64,000 nucleotides of DNA, from NCBI GenBank assembly GCA_963765895.1, contig CAVXZB010000024.1:32001-96000 (forward strand), written 5' to 3'. Origin of the DNA: an uncultured Nitrososphaeraceae archaeon. Its GTDB lineage: Archaea; Thermoproteota; Nitrososphaeria; Nitrososphaerales; Nitrososphaeraceae. Positions 32,862 to 40,789 of this stretch are shown in pieces. Under the pieces are notes generated by a model that was not told where the DNA came from, did no database searches, and worked only from the letters and a program-made list of their open reading frames with translations. Numbering within the stretch: the first letter of the stretch is position 1; each line of letters begins with the position of its first letter. Made by a program: the position numbers and the translations under genes.

Positions 32862-34329
32862 ATGAACGATACTGATATACTACATCCAATAGAAAAAGTT
32901 ATTTTGGGGGAACTTAGATCCGGGCGGCCCTTGAGTCTCGATGTTTTGGCTTCTACAACTGGCTTGAATATTGATCAGCTCAGAAGAGGTATAGAGCGAC
33001 TTAAATTCAAAGGCTGCATTCATGTTAGAGAATTCTCTAAAACAATAATCTCGCTGGGCTCCAATGGACTCGAGGCTATAGTCAAAGGAATGCCTGAACG
33101 CAGATTGATTAATGCTCTAAAAGCTGGATACAAAGATCTAAAATCCATCAAAAAAAGCGGTCTATTAGACGGAAGAGATCTTGAAGCAGCGGTGAACAAA
33201 GCAAAAATACAAAATAGATGGATTGAACAAAGCACTGCAGAAGCTGGCGATAGGATATTCATTCTAAATGAATCAGCAGATCAAACTTCACAAGAGGAAA
33301 AGCTGATCGAGCGTATAAGCAAACAAAGTATTCAAATTTCTGATCTCTCACAAGAGGAGCTTAATGCTCTAAACCTGCTCAGGAAACGTCCCAATTTTGT
33401 TAATGAGATAAACCACAAAGATATACAGTTAGAGGTGACTCCTTTAGGGTTGCAAGTTTACGATAGAACGGATCTGTTACCTAAATTGTCGAGTAAATTG
33501 AACGAAATTCCGATTGACGTTATTTCTCCTGTTAGTTCTGTATATCCTGGACGCACCCATCCTTTAACTGACTTAATTGAAGAAATAAAGGAGATATTTG
33601 TTAGCCTTGGCTTTACAGAAATTGAAGGGGAGACAATTCAACCAGCATTCTGGAATTTCGATGCCTTATTTATCCCACAAGATCATCCCGCAAGAGAGAT
33701 GCAGGACACTTTTTACTTGAAAGACATGAAGAGGATTGACACGGCTAGAAGCCAGCAGATCCAAGGGGTGTCTCAAACACACAACAAGTGGTGGAACTAT
33801 ACTTGGGATTTAGCCAAGTCCGAGAGATTGGTTCTACGCACTCACACGACTCCAGTTACATTAAGATACCTCGCAGATAACGGGACTGAAAATGCTCGAA
33901 TTTTTTCAATTGGTAAAGTATTTAGAAATGAAAAAATGTCTTACAAACACCTTGTCGAGTTTAGCCAGGTAGAAGGGGTTGTAACGGGCAGTAACGTGAG
34001 CCTAACTGATCTAATGGGCTTGCAAACAGAATTTTACAAAAAATTAGGCATTAAGAGAGTAAAATTTTGGCCGACGTACTTTTCCTTACACCGAACCTTC
34101 TTTACAATCTATGATATTTAATGATAATTTGGATAGATGGGTAGAGCTTTTTGGAATGGGAATATTCCGGCCACAGGTGACAGAACCACTTGGTATTATA
34201 AACCCAGTACTTGCTTGGGGAGGAGGAATCGAAAGAATTGCTATGCTTCGATTTGGCCTAAGCGACGTAAGAGAAATCTATAACAACAAATTGGATTGGC
34301 TTAGGAAAATTGCTAAATGCCGGTTGTAA
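32862..34329 (+). CDS. pheS: Phenylalanyl-tRNA synthetase alpha, +1 frameshift in a T-run near 34080
   Basis: WNFDALFIPQDHPAREMQDTF, LRTHTT, FRNE; correction restores PTYFPYTEPS; WGGGIER. Confidence 0.95.
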
Positions 34330-35975
34330 GCCTAGACCTTAAGAGGTTAGAGAAATGGTTCCCTGGAATATCGGTAAACCAACTAATTGATGCACTACCA
34401 TTTATTGCCCTAGATATCGAAAGCGTTACAGATAGTGAGATTAGAATAGAATATAATCCAAATAGACCAGATTTTAGTTCTGATCATGGGATAGCCAGAG
34501 CACTAAGGGGTTATCTAGGTATCGAAATTGGAGTTCCCAAATTCAATCTGACTCGAACCAATAAATATAAAATATTGTCCGATAGCTCTAAAAATCTTTC
34601 TCGACCTTTTATAACTGGACTGGTGGCTAAAAATAGAAGGCTAGGTGATCCAGATATCAGACAGTTATCTGGCCTCCAAGAGGATCTCCATGATGGTATC
34701 GGAAGGAAGAAGATAAAGGCTTCAATAGGTATTTATTCATTAAGTGATATAAAATTTCCACTAAGATATACTTCAGTTTCAAATGATTTTTCCTTTACTT
34801 TTATGAACGGATCATCGGCAACCACGGTCGCCGAATTACTAAATAACCGCGCTTCGGGGACTAAATACCAAAAATTGCAAAAAAAGTCAGGTGGAAACTA
34901 CTCGGCGTTACTAGACAAGAGTAATCAACTAATCTCCATACCACCGCTAGCAAACGGTGTTTCTAGAACTACAGAACCAGGCGTAAGCAATTTATTCATA
35001 GAAGCAACTTCAGTAGATCGCAAGCTTGCCGAAGACATCATCGCTATACTGGCAGCAACGGTATATGATATAGGATTTACACTCCATAGCGTAGTCGTGG
35101 AAACACCTGAAGCCATCAACTACTCACCTAATTTGAAATCCTCACAGATGGTAATAACAACCGACCAAGTTAACGCGACGCTTGGAACAAAGTTATCTAC
35201 CGAAGAAATTATGATGTCTTTAAGGAGGTGTCGTTTAGATGCTAGAGCGGTTAAGAAGGATAACCGAAATATTATTTGCACCATTCCCAGATATAGAGTA
35301 GATATTATCGATAAAATCGATATTGTGGATGAGGTCGCTATAGGCTATGGAATAAACAATCTCATTCCATCTATACCATTTTCCAACATATCTGGAAATC
35401 TGAACTTACTTTCACGCTATCTCGGCATCATAAGAGTAACTATGGTTGGTCTAGGATTTTTGGAAGTAAATAACTTTAGTCTTATCGATAAGAATATACA
35501 ATTTGATTATATGGGCATTGAATGGCAACCTGACAAAGTACTAACTGTCGAAGGTGCTCAAAATGTCGGACTCGATAATCTACGCGACTCATTACTGCCC
35601 TCTTTGATGCAGAATCTCTCTCGCAATATCCATGAAACCTACCCGCAGAAGATATTTGAAATAGCAAAAGTCTTTAGTAACGAGACGAATCTAGAGCAGT
35701 GGCATCTAGCAGTGTTGCTAGCAGCTACCAAATCTAACTTTACCGAAGCGAAATCAGTGTTGCAAGGACTCCTTGAATCCTCATTTGCCAAGGAAATAAA
35801 AACCGAACCCGAGAAACGCTCATACTTCACTGATGGAAGATGTGCGAAGGTTATCATAGACTCTGAGTGGATTGGAGAACTAGGCGAAATCTCAGCCTCA
35901 ACTAGAGATAGTTTCAAATTGAGAGTCCCGGTAGCCGGTTTCGAGATTAATCTTTCTAGAGTACTGCACATATAG
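34317..35975 (+). CDS. pheT: Phenylalanyl-tRNA synthetase beta
   Basis: EYNPNRPD, IPRYRVDI...DIVDEVAIGYG; overlaps the pheS end. Confidence 0.93.
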   Translation: MPVVSLDLKRLEKWFPGISVNQLIDALPFIALDIESVTDSEIRIEYNPNRPDFSSDHGIARALRGYLGIEIGVPKFNLTRTNKYKILSDSSKNLSRPFITGLVAKNRRLGDPDIRQLSGLQEDLHDGIGRKKIKASIGIYSLSDIKFPLRYTSVSNDFSFTFMNGSSATTVAELLNNRASGTKYQKLQKKSGGNYSALLDKSNQLISIPPLANGVSRTTEPGVSNLFIEATSVDRKLAEDIIAILAATVYDIGFTLHSVVVETPEAINYSPNLKSSQMVITTDQVNATLGTKLSTEEIMMSLRRCRLDARAVKKDNRNIICTIPRYRVDIIDKIDIVDEVAIGYGINNLIPSIPFSNISGNLNLLSRYLGIIRVTMVGLGFLEVNNFSLIDKNIQFDYMGIEWQPDKVLTVEGAQNVGLDNLRDSLLPSLMQNLSRNIHETYPQKIFEIAKVFSNETNLEQWHLAVLLAATKSNFTEAKSVLQGLLESSFAKEIKTEPEKRSYFTDGRCAKVIIDSEWIGELGEISASTRDSFKLRVPVAGFEINLSRVLHI

Positions 35976-36302
35976 GATCCTGATGTTTATATTTTGGAAA
36001 TGTTATCAGATACATGCCTGGCCTAATTTGAGTGTCTGTTTACGAGGTCACCACGTGAATCACTTGGTATGCGTTGTATCAGAACTCAATTTGAGCCATA
36101 GGCAACCCCGTAAAAGAGAGTGCACTAGGAGGAATACACAAAGTTGTATGGCTACCTGTGATTAGGTGTGAGTCAGAGACGGGGCACATTTACTACTTCT
36201 TGAAATTGTCAGATTAGATCAAAAAATCTTTGCTCTCCATAACCTGGATCACTTTGAAGGTAATATGTTACTATGAACAGTTTAAGAATATACCGTTAAC
36301 TT

Positions 36303-36479
36303 TCATTGAGTAAGATCAGTGATGCTATTCTTGATGACAGTTTTGGCCTCAGCTGATATGTTATATTGATTTAAAATCTCTGCTGGTGCTCGTATGAGCT
36401 GATTTCTAAAGTCAGGTTCACTCGCAGCCTTAAGTAGAATATCGCTAATAATCTCAGCTTCCTTCTGTCTAGAGTCCAA
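36303..36479 (-). CDS. 58-aa NHLP-clan leader-like peptide, candidate RiPP precursor or partner (not in ORF track)
   Basis: TTG start; MDSRQKEAEIISDILLKAASEPDFRNQLIRAPAEILNQYNISAEAKTVIKNSITDLTQ*; minus-strand TTATATA about 26 nt upstream fits a leaderless mRNA. Confidence 0.75.
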   Translation of the reverse strand: MDSRQKEAEIISDILLKAASEPDFRNQLIRAPAEILNQYNISAEAKTVIKNSITDLTQ

Positions 36480-36812
36480 TCAGCAAATCGGTTGCATGAT
36501 TCCAGTATATAATCTTAATGAATAGTATATAAGCCAATCTAACCATTAAATAATTTTTCTGTATTTAGCTCCTTTATACGTTCGACTGCTTTATCCTTTT
36601 AAAACTAATTTCTTGTAACCATTTTTGAGTGCTCATTCTTCCTCGCATTTTCTAAAATATTAAATATTTTGTCTTTTTATCGCATTAGAATAAAACCACC
36701 ATCCAACGCAGGATTACCATTCATAAGATCTCATTCCACTAGGCTGAATGTTCAAGGCTTAGCTTTGATAAGAATTAAATGCTGGCCTTTAATGGGAATA
36801 GTCAACTAAATA

Positions 36813-38120
36813 TTGCAATTACAAAGCCGAAGGAAATGGACTGCTGAAGGAACATCGAGAGTTCAGCCTCCTAACTTGACTCTCATAAACATCAGGCCAT
36901 TATCAAAAATTATTGGGCTTACAAGGTTGGCAGACATTACTGGGTTGGATGTACTCGCTATCCCCAATTACTCGGCAGTTGTCCCTGGAACTCTCGATTA
37001 CATATGGGTCTATAGTGGGAAAGGTCCAACAAGGAGACATGCGATGGCTAGTGCAATTATGGAATCGATCGAAAGATACTCTTCATTACCAAACACCGAC
37101 AATAGGAACCTGATTCGATCGAGCTATGAAGAGCTTTCGAAGAGATATACTGTTGTGCATCCTGATCAAATCTGCGAACCTACCCGATTTCAATTTAGAG
37201 ACGATATGCAGATGGACTATCTGTCGGGCTTTGACTTGCTAAACGATAGAGAAGTAATGGTACCTGCCTCCCTTGCATTGTTCAGATACGAGCCTATACC
37301 CCCTTCTGTTAATCCCTTTTCATTCTATCACACAAACGGATTGGCTTCTGGAAATGTTATGGAAGAGGCCATATGCCACTCTTTATGTGAATTGATTGAA
37401 CGCGATGCCCTTAGTCTTGCCGAACTGCGCGCCAGTGCAATTCCATTTCATTACGTGAGACATATCGCAGAGGCATTGAGAGCCCATGGGTTTTCCAGTC
37501 CTACAATTACTATTGATAAATTTAAGGATGAGTTTGGAATATTTTCTGATGTCGATTTTTCAGATATGGAATTTGAACCGGTACAGAACCTTATCAAAAT
37601 CTTTGAAAGAAATCACATATCTCTAATCGTTAAGGATATAACGACTGAAATCGGTATCCCAACATTCAATGCGGCAAGCGTTGAATGGGTTACGCATGAT
37701 TATGGCTACTTAGCTGAAGGGCATGGGACCCATCCAGATCCCAGAGTTGCATTGTTGCGCGCAATAACAGAAGTCTCACAAACAAGGGCGGCCAATATCC
37801 AAGGGGCCAGGGACGACCTTAGAAAAGTAAAATACAGCCAAGAGAATACAGATGAAAAGCGTTCATGGCGATTTGTTCCGTCCGAGAAGAGTATTAAGTA
37901 TTCCGAGATAGCTGGTTACTACAATCCCGATATACTTGACGATATAAAATTAATACTAGATCGACTGAGGAAGGCAGGTCTAACCCAGGTGATAATCGTC
38001 AATTTGACAAATAGTAAACTGCAGATTCCTGTAGTTAGGGCAGTAGTACCAGGTCTTGAGACATTTAAGATAACTAAGTCAGTCGTAGGTTGGAGAGCGA
38101 GGAAATTTTTTAAGAAATGA
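36813..38120 (+). CDS. ycaO: YcaO-family ATP-dependent backbone-modifying enzyme (TfuA-associated, thioamide type)
   Basis: SGKG, MESIER, TNGLASGN, ELIERDA, EVSQTRA.NIQGARDD, PVVRAVVPGLE; no C-terminal PxP. Confidence 0.93.
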   Translation: MQLQSRRKWTAEGTSRVQPPNLTLINIRPLSKIIGLTRLADITGLDVLAIPNYSAVVPGTLDYIWVYSGKGPTRRHAMASAIMESIERYSSLPNTDNRNLIRSSYEELSKRYTVVHPDQICEPTRFQFRDDMQMDYLSGFDLLNDREVMVPASLALFRYEPIPPSVNPFSFYHTNGLASGNVMEEAICHSLCELIERDALSLAELRASAIPFHYVRHIAEALRAHGFSSPTITIDKFKDEFGIFSDVDFSDMEFEPVQNLIKIFERNHISLIVKDITTEIGIPTFNAASVEWVTHDYGYLAEGHGTHPDPRVALLRAITEVSQTRAANIQGARDDLRKVKYSQENTDEKRSWRFVPSEKSIKYSEIAGYYNPDILDDIKLILDRLRKAGLTQVIIVNLTNSKLQIPVVRAVVPGLETFKITKSVVGWRARKFFKK

Positions 38121-38800
38121 AAAGACCTATTGTTTTTCTTGGTCCAAGCATGAATAGTGAAAAGGCAAAGGAGGTATTCGATGCTGAGTACAGACCCCCA
38201 GCGAAAAAGGGAGATCTATTGCGACTTGGATTATCCTCAGACGGTTCTATAGTCGGTTTGGTGGATGGAATGTTTCTCCAGGATTATCCGCCGACTCCTA
38301 TAGAGGTATATCAGCTCGTAACTAAGAAAAACGTTATCGTCGTAGGTGCAGCAAGTCTCGGCGCTTTGAGAGCTGTAGAACTCGAGCGTTTTGGGATGAT
38401 AGGGATTGGTACGATTTTTAATTTATACAGAAAGGGCATAGTCTCAGCCGATGACGAGGTTGCTGTCACATTTGAGGAAAACAGTTATAGGTTACAATCT
38501 GAAGCAATGATTGATATAAGATTTAATCTGTTTCTAGCAGAAAAGCGAGGCATTATTAACAATCAGACAAGAAAAATACTTATCAAAATAGCAAAGAAGT
38601 TTTACTTTCCATTACGTAGCTACAACGATATACTTGATTATTCAGTCAGAGAGATCCCTGAATACGCAGATCAATTTGAACTATTTAGATCATATATTGC
38701 TTCTAATAGAATCAGCCTGAAAGAATTGGACACAATCAAGTTAATCAAGTATATAAAGGCCAAGTATGAACAACTCAACAAAAATGGACAAATAAACTAA
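38117..38800 (+). CDS. tfuA: TfuA-like protein
   Basis: VFLGPS, PPAKKGDL, GLVDG, GAASLGALRAVEL, DDEVAV; ATGA overlap with the ycaO stop. Confidence 0.93.
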   Translation: MKRPIVFLGPSMNSEKAKEVFDAEYRPPAKKGDLLRLGLSSDGSIVGLVDGMFLQDYPPTPIEVYQLVTKKNVIVVGAASLGALRAVELERFGMIGIGTIFNLYRKGIVSADDEVAVTFEENSYRLQSEAMIDIRFNLFLAEKRGIINNQTRKILIKIAKKFYFPLRSYNDILDYSVREIPEYADQFELFRSYIASNRISLKELDTIKLIKYIKAKYEQLNKNGQIN

Positions 38801-38850
38801 TTACGCTAGATTAACAAATTTCATCTCTAATTGTATATACTATTTATGAA

Positions 38851-39444
38851 TTAACTCTTCCGAATAGATTGTTCCTTAAACCAATTCAAGAAATAGCCAA
38901 TAGAACCTCCTAGTGGTAACGCATCTTCTCTTTTTACATTATATCCCAACAAGACCATTCTATGTAGCAGACGTGTTTGTAATTCTGCAGGTAATTTGTC
39001 TTCACTCAATGGAGGAAAGAGCTCAAAAAAGTATTGTTGTTTATAATATGCTACATGCTGCACAAAACATGCAGACAGAATTGTAGGATCCCCAGAAATT
39101 CTTTTGTGCATTTCAAAATCCTGTCCGTGTCTTTCTGCATGTAACTGTAACACACGTCGATTAAAATTTTCGCGAATTGATTCAGAATTCAATCTATTGG
39201 AGGTTTCTGTAAGGGCTTTGATCTCGTTAACAAGCTGATTCACAGTTCTCCTTGCCAAATCAACTGCGGTTGGCAATTCAGCAGAAGTAACTCCAAAATC
39301 CTTACCAAATAGGTAAAAAGACGCCATTAGCTCATGCTTTGCCATAATTGGAAATTCTAATTTTCCATCAGTAAAGTTCAATATTCTAGAAGAAATATCT
39401 GTAGGTTCAAAAATTCCCATATATGAATCTGCCAGAACTCCCAA
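38851..39444 (-). CDS. Hypothetical protein
   Basis: 197-aa ORF convergent with tfuA; TATA-like element upstream. Confidence 0.7.
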   Translation of the reverse strand: MGVLADSYMGIFEPTDISSRILNFTDGKLEFPIMAKHELMASFYLFGKDFGVTSAELPTAVDLARRTVNQLVNEIKALTETSNRLNSESIRENFNRRVLQLHAERHGQDFEMHKRISGDPTILSACFVQHVAYYKQQYFFELFPPLSEDKLPAELQTRLLHRMVLLGYNVKREDALPLGGSIGYFLNWFKEQSIRKS

Positions 39445-39727
39445 CTTGCTTCAGGTTAGATCATTACTCAAATATATAACTGTAATATCACATAATTCAT
39501 TAATTTGAAAATATATCAATTTAGAGTAGTTTCATGAGGCAAATTGCGAGTGGTTACTTCTACTTCGTGCTCTAAAGGGTACATTAATTTGTGATTGGTT
39601 GTAGGTCATACCGCTTCATCGGATTCGACGTTAACTAAATCAATGAGTATTGCATGAAACTCAATCAGGATCAAAATGACATTAATTTATCACACGTATT
39701 GGTGCGAGAATTCGTGCAAAATGACAA

Positions 39728-40789
39728 TTGTGGGCACACGTAAAATTCAGAAATAACACAATGACGAACATCCTTTTTCACTGCGATAATATCGAGGCAA
39801 TGGAATATCTAATAAAAAACGGCTTTGAGAATAAAATTGACCTTATATATATAGACCCGCCATTTTTAACGAGAGATAAGTATTTTTTGAGAATCCAGGG
39901 CAGTCAAAGGCTCGCTTTCGATGATACGTTTAGAGGTGGAAATCCATTAAAAATTTATTTGGATAGCATGTATCCCCGGCTGAAAAATATAAGACGTTTA
40001 CTGTCACCTTCGGGATCTCTTTTCATTCACATGGATTGGCATATGGTGCACTACATAAAAGTAGTTATGGATGAATTGTTCGGTTATCGCAACTTTCGAA
40101 ACGAGATAGTGATTAAAAGGGGTAGGAGAAAGAATTTGCTTTATCAGTTCAAATCCATGGGCAGAATGCATATTGCAAACGATTCGATTTTATGGTATTC
40201 GAAGGATACCTCAGCAAAGTTCCCATTACCAATGAAAGTGAATACAGTAGACTCAAAATGGATGGGATTTTGGAGTAATGTAAATAGACCTACTATGCGT
40301 TACAATCTTCTAGGTTATATACCGGAAAGGGGTCAATGGAAATGGACCAGATCCAGGGCCATGAAGGCCGTACACAACTATAAGCGCTATCAGTGTTATT
40401 TTTCACAAGTTCCGCTTGAAAAATATTGGCTCCAAACGGGCAGAAGGTTAGAGTTTGTCCGGAAAAGAGAAGAAGTTAAGTATGCTGAATATTGGATACC
40501 ACCAAAGAGTAGGACAGTCTTGGATAACATCTGGCTAGATGTAGAAAGCTATGGATATTCAACTGGATATGAGACAGAAAAGCATGAACAATTATTAGAA
40601 AGAATTATTGGCCAGTTTTCCTATCCTAAGGCATTAGTTGCCGATTTCTTTTGCGGATCTGGGACATCTTTAGTCGCTGCCGCAAGATTGGCAAGAAATT
40701 GGATTGGATGCGACTCCTCCACTCAGGCTATTAACGTAGCACGAAAGAGACTGTTTAATACTAGCTATAAGCTAATAAGGCTGGCTTGA
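39728..40789 (+). CDS. Beta-class N6-adenine/N4-cytosine DNA methyltransferase (Mod-like), orphan
   Basis: DLIYIDPPF catalytic motif N-terminal; DFFCGSGT SAM motif C-terminal; NFRNEI. Confidence 0.9.
   Translation: MWAHVKFRNNTMTNILFHCDNIEAMEYLIKNGFENKIDLIYIDPPFLTRDKYFLRIQGSQRLAFDDTFRGGNPLKIYLDSMYPRLKNIRRLLSPSGSLFIHMDWHMVHYIKVVMDELFGYRNFRNEIVIKRGRRKNLLYQFKSMGRMHIANDSILWYSKDTSAKFPLPMKVNTVDSKWMGFWSNVNRPTMRYNLLGYIPERGQWKWTRSRAMKAVHNYKRYQCYFSQVPLEKYWLQTGRRLEFVRKREEVKYAEYWIPPKSRTVLDNIWLDVESYGYSTGYETEKHEQLLERIIGQFSYPKALVADFFCGSGTSLVAAARLARNWIGCDSSTQAINVARKRLFNTSYKLIRLA

Follow-up and report, generated by a model that had tools for sequence, protein, structure and literature searches.

The window analysed here, a stretch of 64,000 nucleotides from contig 24 of an uncultured Nitrososphaeraceae archaeon (genome assembly of 4.9 Mb, 88% complete), contains a ycaO-tfuA gene pair and, transcribed divergently from it, a small open reading frame (ORF) for a protein of 58 residues (Table 1). 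The initial annotation, made from the nucleotide sequence and its ORFs, regarded the pair as a candidate thioamide-installing system accompanied by a leader-like peptide; the head-to-head arrangement of the small ORF and ycaO across about 330 nt, together with the coordinates it gave, was reproduced in our analysis. In the genomes compared here the small gene and the pair are found together, and the evidence presented below suggests that the small protein may be the substrate on which YcaO and TfuA act.

Table 1. Features of the ycaO-tfuA locus, in window coordinates.
Feature	Position	Strand	Description
Small ORF	36303..36479	-	58 aa, TTG start; NHLP-clan small protein; candidate thioamidation substrate
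TATA-like element TTATATA	36506..36512	-	26 nt upstream of the TTG of the small gene
Divergent intergenic region	36480..36812	.	333 nt between the small gene and ycaO, both promoters
ycaO	36813..38120	+	435 aa; Pfam YcaO, E-value 5e-75; ATP-dependent backbone amide-activating enzyme, TfuA-associated type
tfuA	38117..38800	+	227 aa; Pfam TfuA, E-value 4.8e-36; partner of thioamide-forming YcaOs

The two enzyme genes overlap by the tetranucleotide ATGA (38117-38120), as the initial annotation had stated, and by this arrangement tfuA is, as judged from the sequence, translationally coupled to ycaO. The YcaO match to Pfam spans the complete profile (positions 1-325 of 325). Among the curated families, YcaO is most similar to TIGR03266 (methan_mark_1; 274.1 bits, below the cut-off of 365) and TfuA to NF033432 (207.2 bits, below the cut-off of 235.2). 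Eight positions of YcaO (S80, E84, E87, R88, E193, E196, R197 and D198), which we take to be the ATP/Mg ligands, are invariant across the enzymes of ammonia-oxidising archaea and those of the methanogen type, which bears out the earlier remark that the ATP/Mg motifs are kept. TfuA-associated YcaOs are expected to lack a C-terminal PxPxP; the last 25 residues of the protein contain a single proline, and hence neither PxP nor PxPxP, again as annotated. The QGARDD segment (residues 330-335), which had been likened to methanogen-type YcaOs, does occupy the corresponding position, but the methanogen-type representatives exhibit HGARED or HGTRED there, so the likeness is approximate. Compared with the methanogen type, the YcaOs of ammonia-oxidising archaea carry an insertion of about 35 residues (approximately 209-243, predicted to form a helix at 210-224 and a loop) and lack about 7 residues after the QGARDD region. 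The AlphaFold2 model of YcaO has a predicted local distance difference test score (pLDDT) of 85.9, and the nearest solved structure is MJ1094 from M. jannaschii (6pe3 and 6peu in the PDB, E-value 3.9e-35).

The relationships of YcaO were analysed with the 150 nearest representatives at 50% identity, of which 118 have lengths of 380-520 aa and the first 60 of these were scanned. TIGR03266 is the best family for all 60, and six of them exceed its cut-off; one representative that passes this methanogen model, P0125, is 41-42% identical to the YcaO of the window. In a quick IQ-TREE phylogeny of 75 rows (12 of the 26 orthologues from ammonia-oxidising archaea, 3 paralogues and the 60 representatives) the YcaOs of ammonia-oxidising archaea group in a single clade (SH-aLRT 99) that includes the paralogues as an inner branch, apart from a separate clade of the six methanogen-type representatives (95); a larger group containing both has weak support (80). 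This comparison with the methanogen enzymes had been called for by the initial annotation, and its outcome agrees with PMC5589413, the available text of which places the homologs from ammonia-oxidising archaea among the methanogen YcaOs. The sequence comparisons support assigning the ycaO-tfuA of this ammonia-oxidising archaeon to the thioamide-forming pairs. The same genome encodes a second YcaO on contig C38 (40918-42282; L031 1486-2892, minus strand), a 468-aa ORF with about 55% identity to the first; neither tfuA nor an NHLP-like ORF was found within 1.5 kb of it, and extra copies similar to this paralogue occur also in the related genomes G003, G006 and G016.

The presence of such enzymes in ammonia oxidisers is not new: YcaO-TfuA of these organisms is already in print in PMC5589413 and PMC8120280, and the former (2017), in the text available, states that ammonia-oxidising archaea carry methanogen-type thioamidation enzymes though lacking methyl-coenzyme M reductase (MCR). 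The host conforms to this description. The contig that carries ycaO-tfuA also shows an archaeal amoA family match, and no match to MCR_alpha was found in the 88%-complete host genome or in any of five near-complete (98-99%) relatives carrying the same operon, the control methanogen genomes giving matches in both searches. The organism is therefore taken to be an ammonia oxidiser without MCR, as had been supposed, with the limit that its genome is incomplete; the result for the five relatives strengthens this view. The closest known counterpart is the system for thioamidation of the McrA glycine in methanogens and anaerobic methanotrophic (ANME) archaea (TIGR03266/NF033432; M. acetivorans, PMC5589413), in which both enzyme families recur with their gene order unchanged and which has the conserved acidic and arginine positions in common with the YcaO described here. 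It differs in that both enzymes of the window stay under the cut-offs of its equivalogs and that the gene for the McrA substrate was not found in the host; the ammonia oxidisers have instead their own YcaO clade, with the insertion and the loss mentioned above, and a dedicated small-protein partner.

Orthologs of the small gene were collected by tblastn (n=23), and codons, start sites and TATA-like elements were analysed in the 19 ungapped ones (L022, L026, L027 and L029 being dropped). The orthologs align from end to end of the 58-residue protein, with identities of 31-98% and with A18, P22, F24, R25, L28, L36, S42 and K46 invariant. The mean pairwise differences at the three codon positions are 0.219, 0.142 and 0.522, a pattern that identifies the small ORF as a real protein-coding gene, translated and under purifying selection; a conserved non-coding element in its place is ruled out by this pattern together with the conservation of the full-length protein. 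The TTG start codon (36477-36479) is retained in all 19 ungapped orthologs, and a TATA-like element, read by eye, ends approximately 25-27 nt before the TTG at all 19 loci, a spacing from which a leaderless or nearly leaderless mRNA may be inferred. A conserved non-AUG start on an apparently leaderless message is unusual. The small gene is single-copy in the host genome; the related genome G021 possesses two full-length copies on different contigs (C169:7115-7285 and C279:124-294, E-values 7e-31 and 1.3e-29). The searches returned also eight longer matches (113-198 aa), of which four were inspected: two are over-calls of an upstream start and two read past the stop codon, so that no true fusion was found among these four of the eight, which is weak evidence. 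The small ORF and ycaO-tfuA are both represented among contigs, 95-99% alike, from soil or rhizosphere RNA libraries (4 libraries from 4 studies); this is weak evidence of expression, because RNA libraries can also hold DNA. The RNA contigs leave the spacer at about 36475-36790 uncovered, those with the small ORF ending at 36465-36474 (one with a loose adapter end at 36474); this gap is not taken as a sign that there are two transcripts or that a 5' end lies there.

The distribution of the genes was analysed in an order-level sample of 41 genomes (the host's own genus, family and order). A YcaO ortholog and a match to the profile of the small protein occur in exactly the same 27 genomes; both partners are present in all 24 genomes of the host's family and in one of one genome from each of two other families, and both are absent from 14 other families (0/14). 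In 24 of the 27 genomes (23 by tblastn, and G032 by the profile) the small gene is located divergently upstream of ycaO within 1.5 kb. In G006 it lies on another small contig, and in G008 and G019 it is found elsewhere (about 0.9 Mb away in G019), with ycaO-tfuA retained. The flanks are less stable, with pheT present at 10 and the 197-aa ORF at 7 of the 27 loci. The locus of G032 (family f9) contains a gene for a 322-aa membrane protein of the SBF/bile-acid:sodium symporter family (L065 3496-4464), which separates the small gene from ycaO and has the same orientation as the latter; it is the sole transporter-like gene at the loci examined. A scan of species representatives, in which the best 80 of 166 relatives' loci were used (overlapping with the 41-genome sample; 6 of the 80 uninformative), revealed ycaO divergently upstream in 50 of the 74 informative loci. 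TfuA is also visible in 48 of these 50, the other two stopping at a contig end, and the gap between the small gene and ycaO is mostly 84-109 nt, increasing to about 300-340 nt in the host's genus. Co-conservation of the small ORF with the pair, which the initial annotation had proposed to check, is thus borne out by both samples.

In a phylum-level sample of 301 genomes TfuA was found outside the host lineage only in two families, f24 (25 of 25 genomes) and f51 (3 of 3). MCR_alpha is present in all five genomes tested from these two families, its distance from tfuA being no more than about 5 kb in three, and the profile of the small protein gave four marginal matches across the 301 genomes (E-values from 9e-4 to 4.5e-3), all of them in families without TfuA. 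In the sampled genomes TfuA accompanies either MCR or the small protein.

The region upstream of ycaO exhibits the element TTGATAAGAA at 36765-36774, about 38 nt before the start codon. At about 19 of 22 loci a similar TTGATA(T/A)GAA-like element was recognised by eye approximately 35-45 nt upstream of the ycaO start, also in the two genomes whose small gene has moved away, and the element is probably the ycaO promoter.

The NHLP-like signature noted for the small protein is real, though sub-threshold: the protein is the sole match of leader_NHLP (TIGR03793) in the whole genome at an E-value of 0.1 or better (E-value 2.8e-4, model positions 3-36 of 77), and its 20.7 bits lie under the cut-off of 50.9. 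NF038399 matches the protein of the window with 17 bits against a cut-off of 40. When the 23 orthologs were compared with NCBIfam one by one, 21 matched NF038399 (Os1348 family NHLP-clan protein, best E-value 5.9e-6), 19 matched TIGR03793 (best E-value 5.1e-5) and 7 matched nitrile hydratase alpha; in Pfam, PF14407 (Frankia_peptide) was matched by 17 and NHase_alpha by 9. Comparison of the family profile with the sequences in the PDB retrieved nitrile hydratase alpha chains first (E-values from 1.3e-7 to 1e-3, over the KAxxDPEF(K/R)xxL helix) and the NHLP leader peptide chain 9cjx with an E-value of 0.009. The NHLP leaders of TIGR03793 and the N-terminal region of nitrile hydratase alpha share with the small protein the helix motif (I/V)xxKAxx(D/E)PxF(K/R)xxLxxxP. 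These matches support distant kinship rather than membership: the protein appears by sequence to be kin to the NHLP leaders and to Os1348, and by curated score is a member of neither. Os1348 of Pseudomonas sp. Os17 (NF038399; 6lk7 in the PDB) likewise belongs to the NHLP clan and is small and helical, a presumed precursor on which the products of neighboring genes would act; according to the available text of PMC7726476 it differs in its length of 85 aa and in its neighbors, which in place of YcaO-TfuA are a GNAT protein, a protein resembling peptidases and a dehydrogenase of the SagB type.

The AlphaFold2 model of the small protein (23-row alignment; pLDDT 86.6, predicted template modelling score 0.65) comprises helices at residues 3-20, 22-30, 32-37 and 43-57. 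Foldseek found no match to this model in the PDB at an E-value of 0.001 or better, 6lk7 appearing at an E-value of 7. The VIA alignments yielded only generic helical matches (best Z-score 6.2), and neither search speaks for or against kinship; 6lk7 ranks tenth among the VIA matches (Z-score 5.5, 22% identity, root-mean-square deviation 2.5 over 54 residues), a standing it shares with many helical proteins that are unrelated. The C-terminal segment (approximately residues 42-58) contains the motif KxxIKxSIxDLTQ, including Ser52 and Thr57. In the divergent orthologs of G009, G027 and G032 the extreme C-terminus differs and a hydrophobic-x-(S/T)-hydrophobic stretch is kept.

The genes around the locus, as annotated earlier, belong to a housekeeping context: pheS and pheT lie upstream, and a 197-aa protein without a family match and an N6/N4 DNA methylase lie downstream. 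The domain scan of the neighboring ORFs in the window revealed no protease, transporter or ThiS beside ycaO-tfuA, in agreement with the initial annotation, and no E1-like or Ocin-ThiF partner or dehydrogenase. A whole-genome search found one TfuA, and two ThiS-family matches are located elsewhere in the genome, so a sulfur carrier is available in trans. An Rfam scan of the locus and its surroundings (35900-39600) returned nothing relevant. Thioamitides, i.e. the thioviridamide class, are defined by additional tailoring enzymes beside YcaO-TfuA, and no domain of such enzymes was found in the neighboring ORFs; the suggestion that the locus could specify an archaeal thioamitide was accordingly abandoned. 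Bacterial TfuA-YcaO clusters for RiPPs (peptides made by the ribosome and then modified post-translationally), described in the available text of PMC8120280 as thioviridamide-type or "TfuA-related", likewise have YcaO-TfuA beside a short possible precursor gene, and the same text counts 8 TfuA-related YcaO clusters in Thaumarchaeota. Unlike these bacterial clusters, the locus described here is devoid of further tailoring enzymes, a protease and an exporter, and the putative precursor is NHLP-like, shows conservation from end to end and belongs to the core genome shared by the family (24/24) instead of being sporadic.

Three observations concern the surrounding genes only. The pheS gene (32862-34329) is broken, its frames 32862-34121 and 34111-34329 overlapping; the T homopolymer near 34081-34084 seems to have one base in excess, and removal of one T restores, by eye, the expected continuation FPYTEPS. 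The amoA gene, outside the window on contig 24 (168102-168652), matches its family in three separate frames. Both frame breaks look like homopolymer indel errors of the assembly, not like pseudogenes. The N6/N4 DNA methylase gene (39728-40789, Pfam N6_N4_Mtase, E-value 1e-34) is not kept beside ycaO in other genera.

Starting from the observed identities of the three genes, the reality of the small one and its linkage to and co-occurrence with ycaO-tfuA, we infer a scheme of binding, chemistry, modification site and product fate in which the 58-residue protein would be the thioamidation substrate of YcaO-TfuA and the three genes would form a module, a reading to which we assign a probability of roughly 0.55. 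Recognition would take place through the NHLP-like helices (approximately residues 11-41). YcaO would use ATP to phosphorylate one backbone carbonyl of the bound protein, and TfuA would supply or channel sulfide, so that sulfur replaces the backbone oxygen. In characterised TfuA systems the source of sulfide is a ThiS-type thiocarboxylate. The modified residue is expected in the conserved C-terminal segment. The product would probably be the full-length, thioamide-bearing small protein kept in the cell and not a secreted antibiotic, because there is no leader protease, Gly-Gly site or exporter.

Several observations weigh against this assignment of the substrate. All family matches of the small protein fall below the curated cut-offs. 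A typical NHLP precursor possesses a Gly-Gly leader cleavage site followed by the core peptide, with a C39-peptidase ABC exporter encoded nearby; in contrast, the small protein is 58 aa in all, none of the 23 orthologs contains Gly-Gly, and no Cys-rich or variable core was found in their alignments. The putative core is not variable: in 64 distinct sequences the C-terminal third (residues 42-58, mean majority fraction 0.80) equals the NHLP-like part (residues 11-41, 0.78) in conservation, and the small protein does not conform to a divergent leader followed by a variable core. AlphaFold2 predicts a compact four-helix protein whose C-terminal segment is helical, not a floppy peptide. The genes are not always linked, as 24 of the 74 informative loci, i.e. 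about a third, lack ycaO over a distance of at least 1.5 kb; all but one of these 24 have the alternative neighborhood seen in G019, including a Na/H exchanger and an OGG-like glycosylase, which points to one relocation in the ancestor of one clade. The co-occurrence could come partly from shared ancestry: the genomes with the trio are related to one another and represent only three lineages at family level, so the independent events are few. The tail of the small protein, S-I-x-D-L-T-Q, was also compared with the McrA site, F-G-F-D-L-Q in the available text of PMC5589413; the likeness amounts to two residues, D-L, and is absent from the orthologs of G009, G027 and G032, and mimicry of the McrA site was rejected as an argument and retained as a lead only. 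Finally, because McrA, the protein modified by the closest characterised enzymes, is large (PMC5589413, as far as its text is available), a large cellular target is also conceivable for the pair described here.

The small protein may be a true partner of YcaO-TfuA without being its substrate, i.e. an adaptor, chaperone or specificity factor that brings a larger protein, comparable to McrA in methanogens, to the enzyme via its NHLP-like helices. Its conservation along the entire length without a variable core and its compact predicted fold would suit a structural partner, co-occurrence and linkage are what any obligate partner would show, and the last point above fits as well. We regard this explanation as possible, though not probable: where NHLP-clan domains are known, they form the N-terminal portion of the very peptide that is modified, we know of no natural NHLP-like protein that stands alone and acts in trans, and the neighborhood yields no candidate for the large target.

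Alternatively, the target of thioamidation by YcaO-TfuA could be a housekeeping protein unrelated to the small one, whose gene would then be only a lineage-specific neighbor and its co-occurrence a result of shared ancestry. The restriction of the trio to three family-level lineages, the separation of the genes in one clade and the housekeeping context of the locus would all fit this explanation, which nevertheless appears rather unlikely in view of the exact match of presence and absence in all 41 genomes, the adjacency that persists while both flanks change, and the location of the sole NHLP-like gene of a 4.9-Mb genome next to its sole TfuA; moreover, NHLP-type peptides are an established class of substrates of RiPP enzymes (description of TIGR03793). 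It is very unlikely that the small protein is the substrate of another chemistry, such as formation of an oxazoline from Ser or Thr or of an amidine in its C-terminal segment: the tail does contain conserved Ser52 and Thr57, the genome does encode a YcaO paralogue without TfuA, and YcaOs form azolines, amidines and thioamides via one activation step (in part from the available text of PMC8120280), but tfuA is coupled to ycaO and retained with it at the linked loci, the locus has no E1-like/Ocin-ThiF partner or dehydrogenase, and the best family matches of both enzymes are thioamidation equivalogs.

If YcaO-TfuA does modify the small protein, one may speculate about the role of the product. The precursors of PQQ (PqqA) and of mycofactocin have conserved cores, which parallels the family-wide conservation of the putative core of the small protein, and the methanobactins of methanotrophs contain thioamides, a functional parallel formed by an unrelated enzyme route. 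The 58-residue protein could then be the first archaeal thioamide-bearing protein beyond MCR, cofactor-like and retained in the cell, with a soft sulfur ligand that might handle, for instance, copper for ammonia oxidation, the machinery of which depends on that metal; this proposal, which goes beyond the assignment of the substrate, is tentative and on present sequence evidence doubtful.

No target of the YcaO-TfuA of ammonia-oxidising archaea is named in the literature searched, and no description of the small partner protein was found in the full-text literature searched, the supplementary precursor tables of PMC8120280 being a place where it may be listed. A strictly co-occurring partner protein of about 6.5 kDa makes the open question of the target directly testable. 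Should the small protein turn out to be unmodified, the search would shift to a larger cellular target; should it be modified, archaeal thioamidation would not be a speciality of MCR. In that case a conserved sulfur-modified small protein would be present in soil nitrifiers, organisms of importance for the loss of fertiliser and the emission of N2O.

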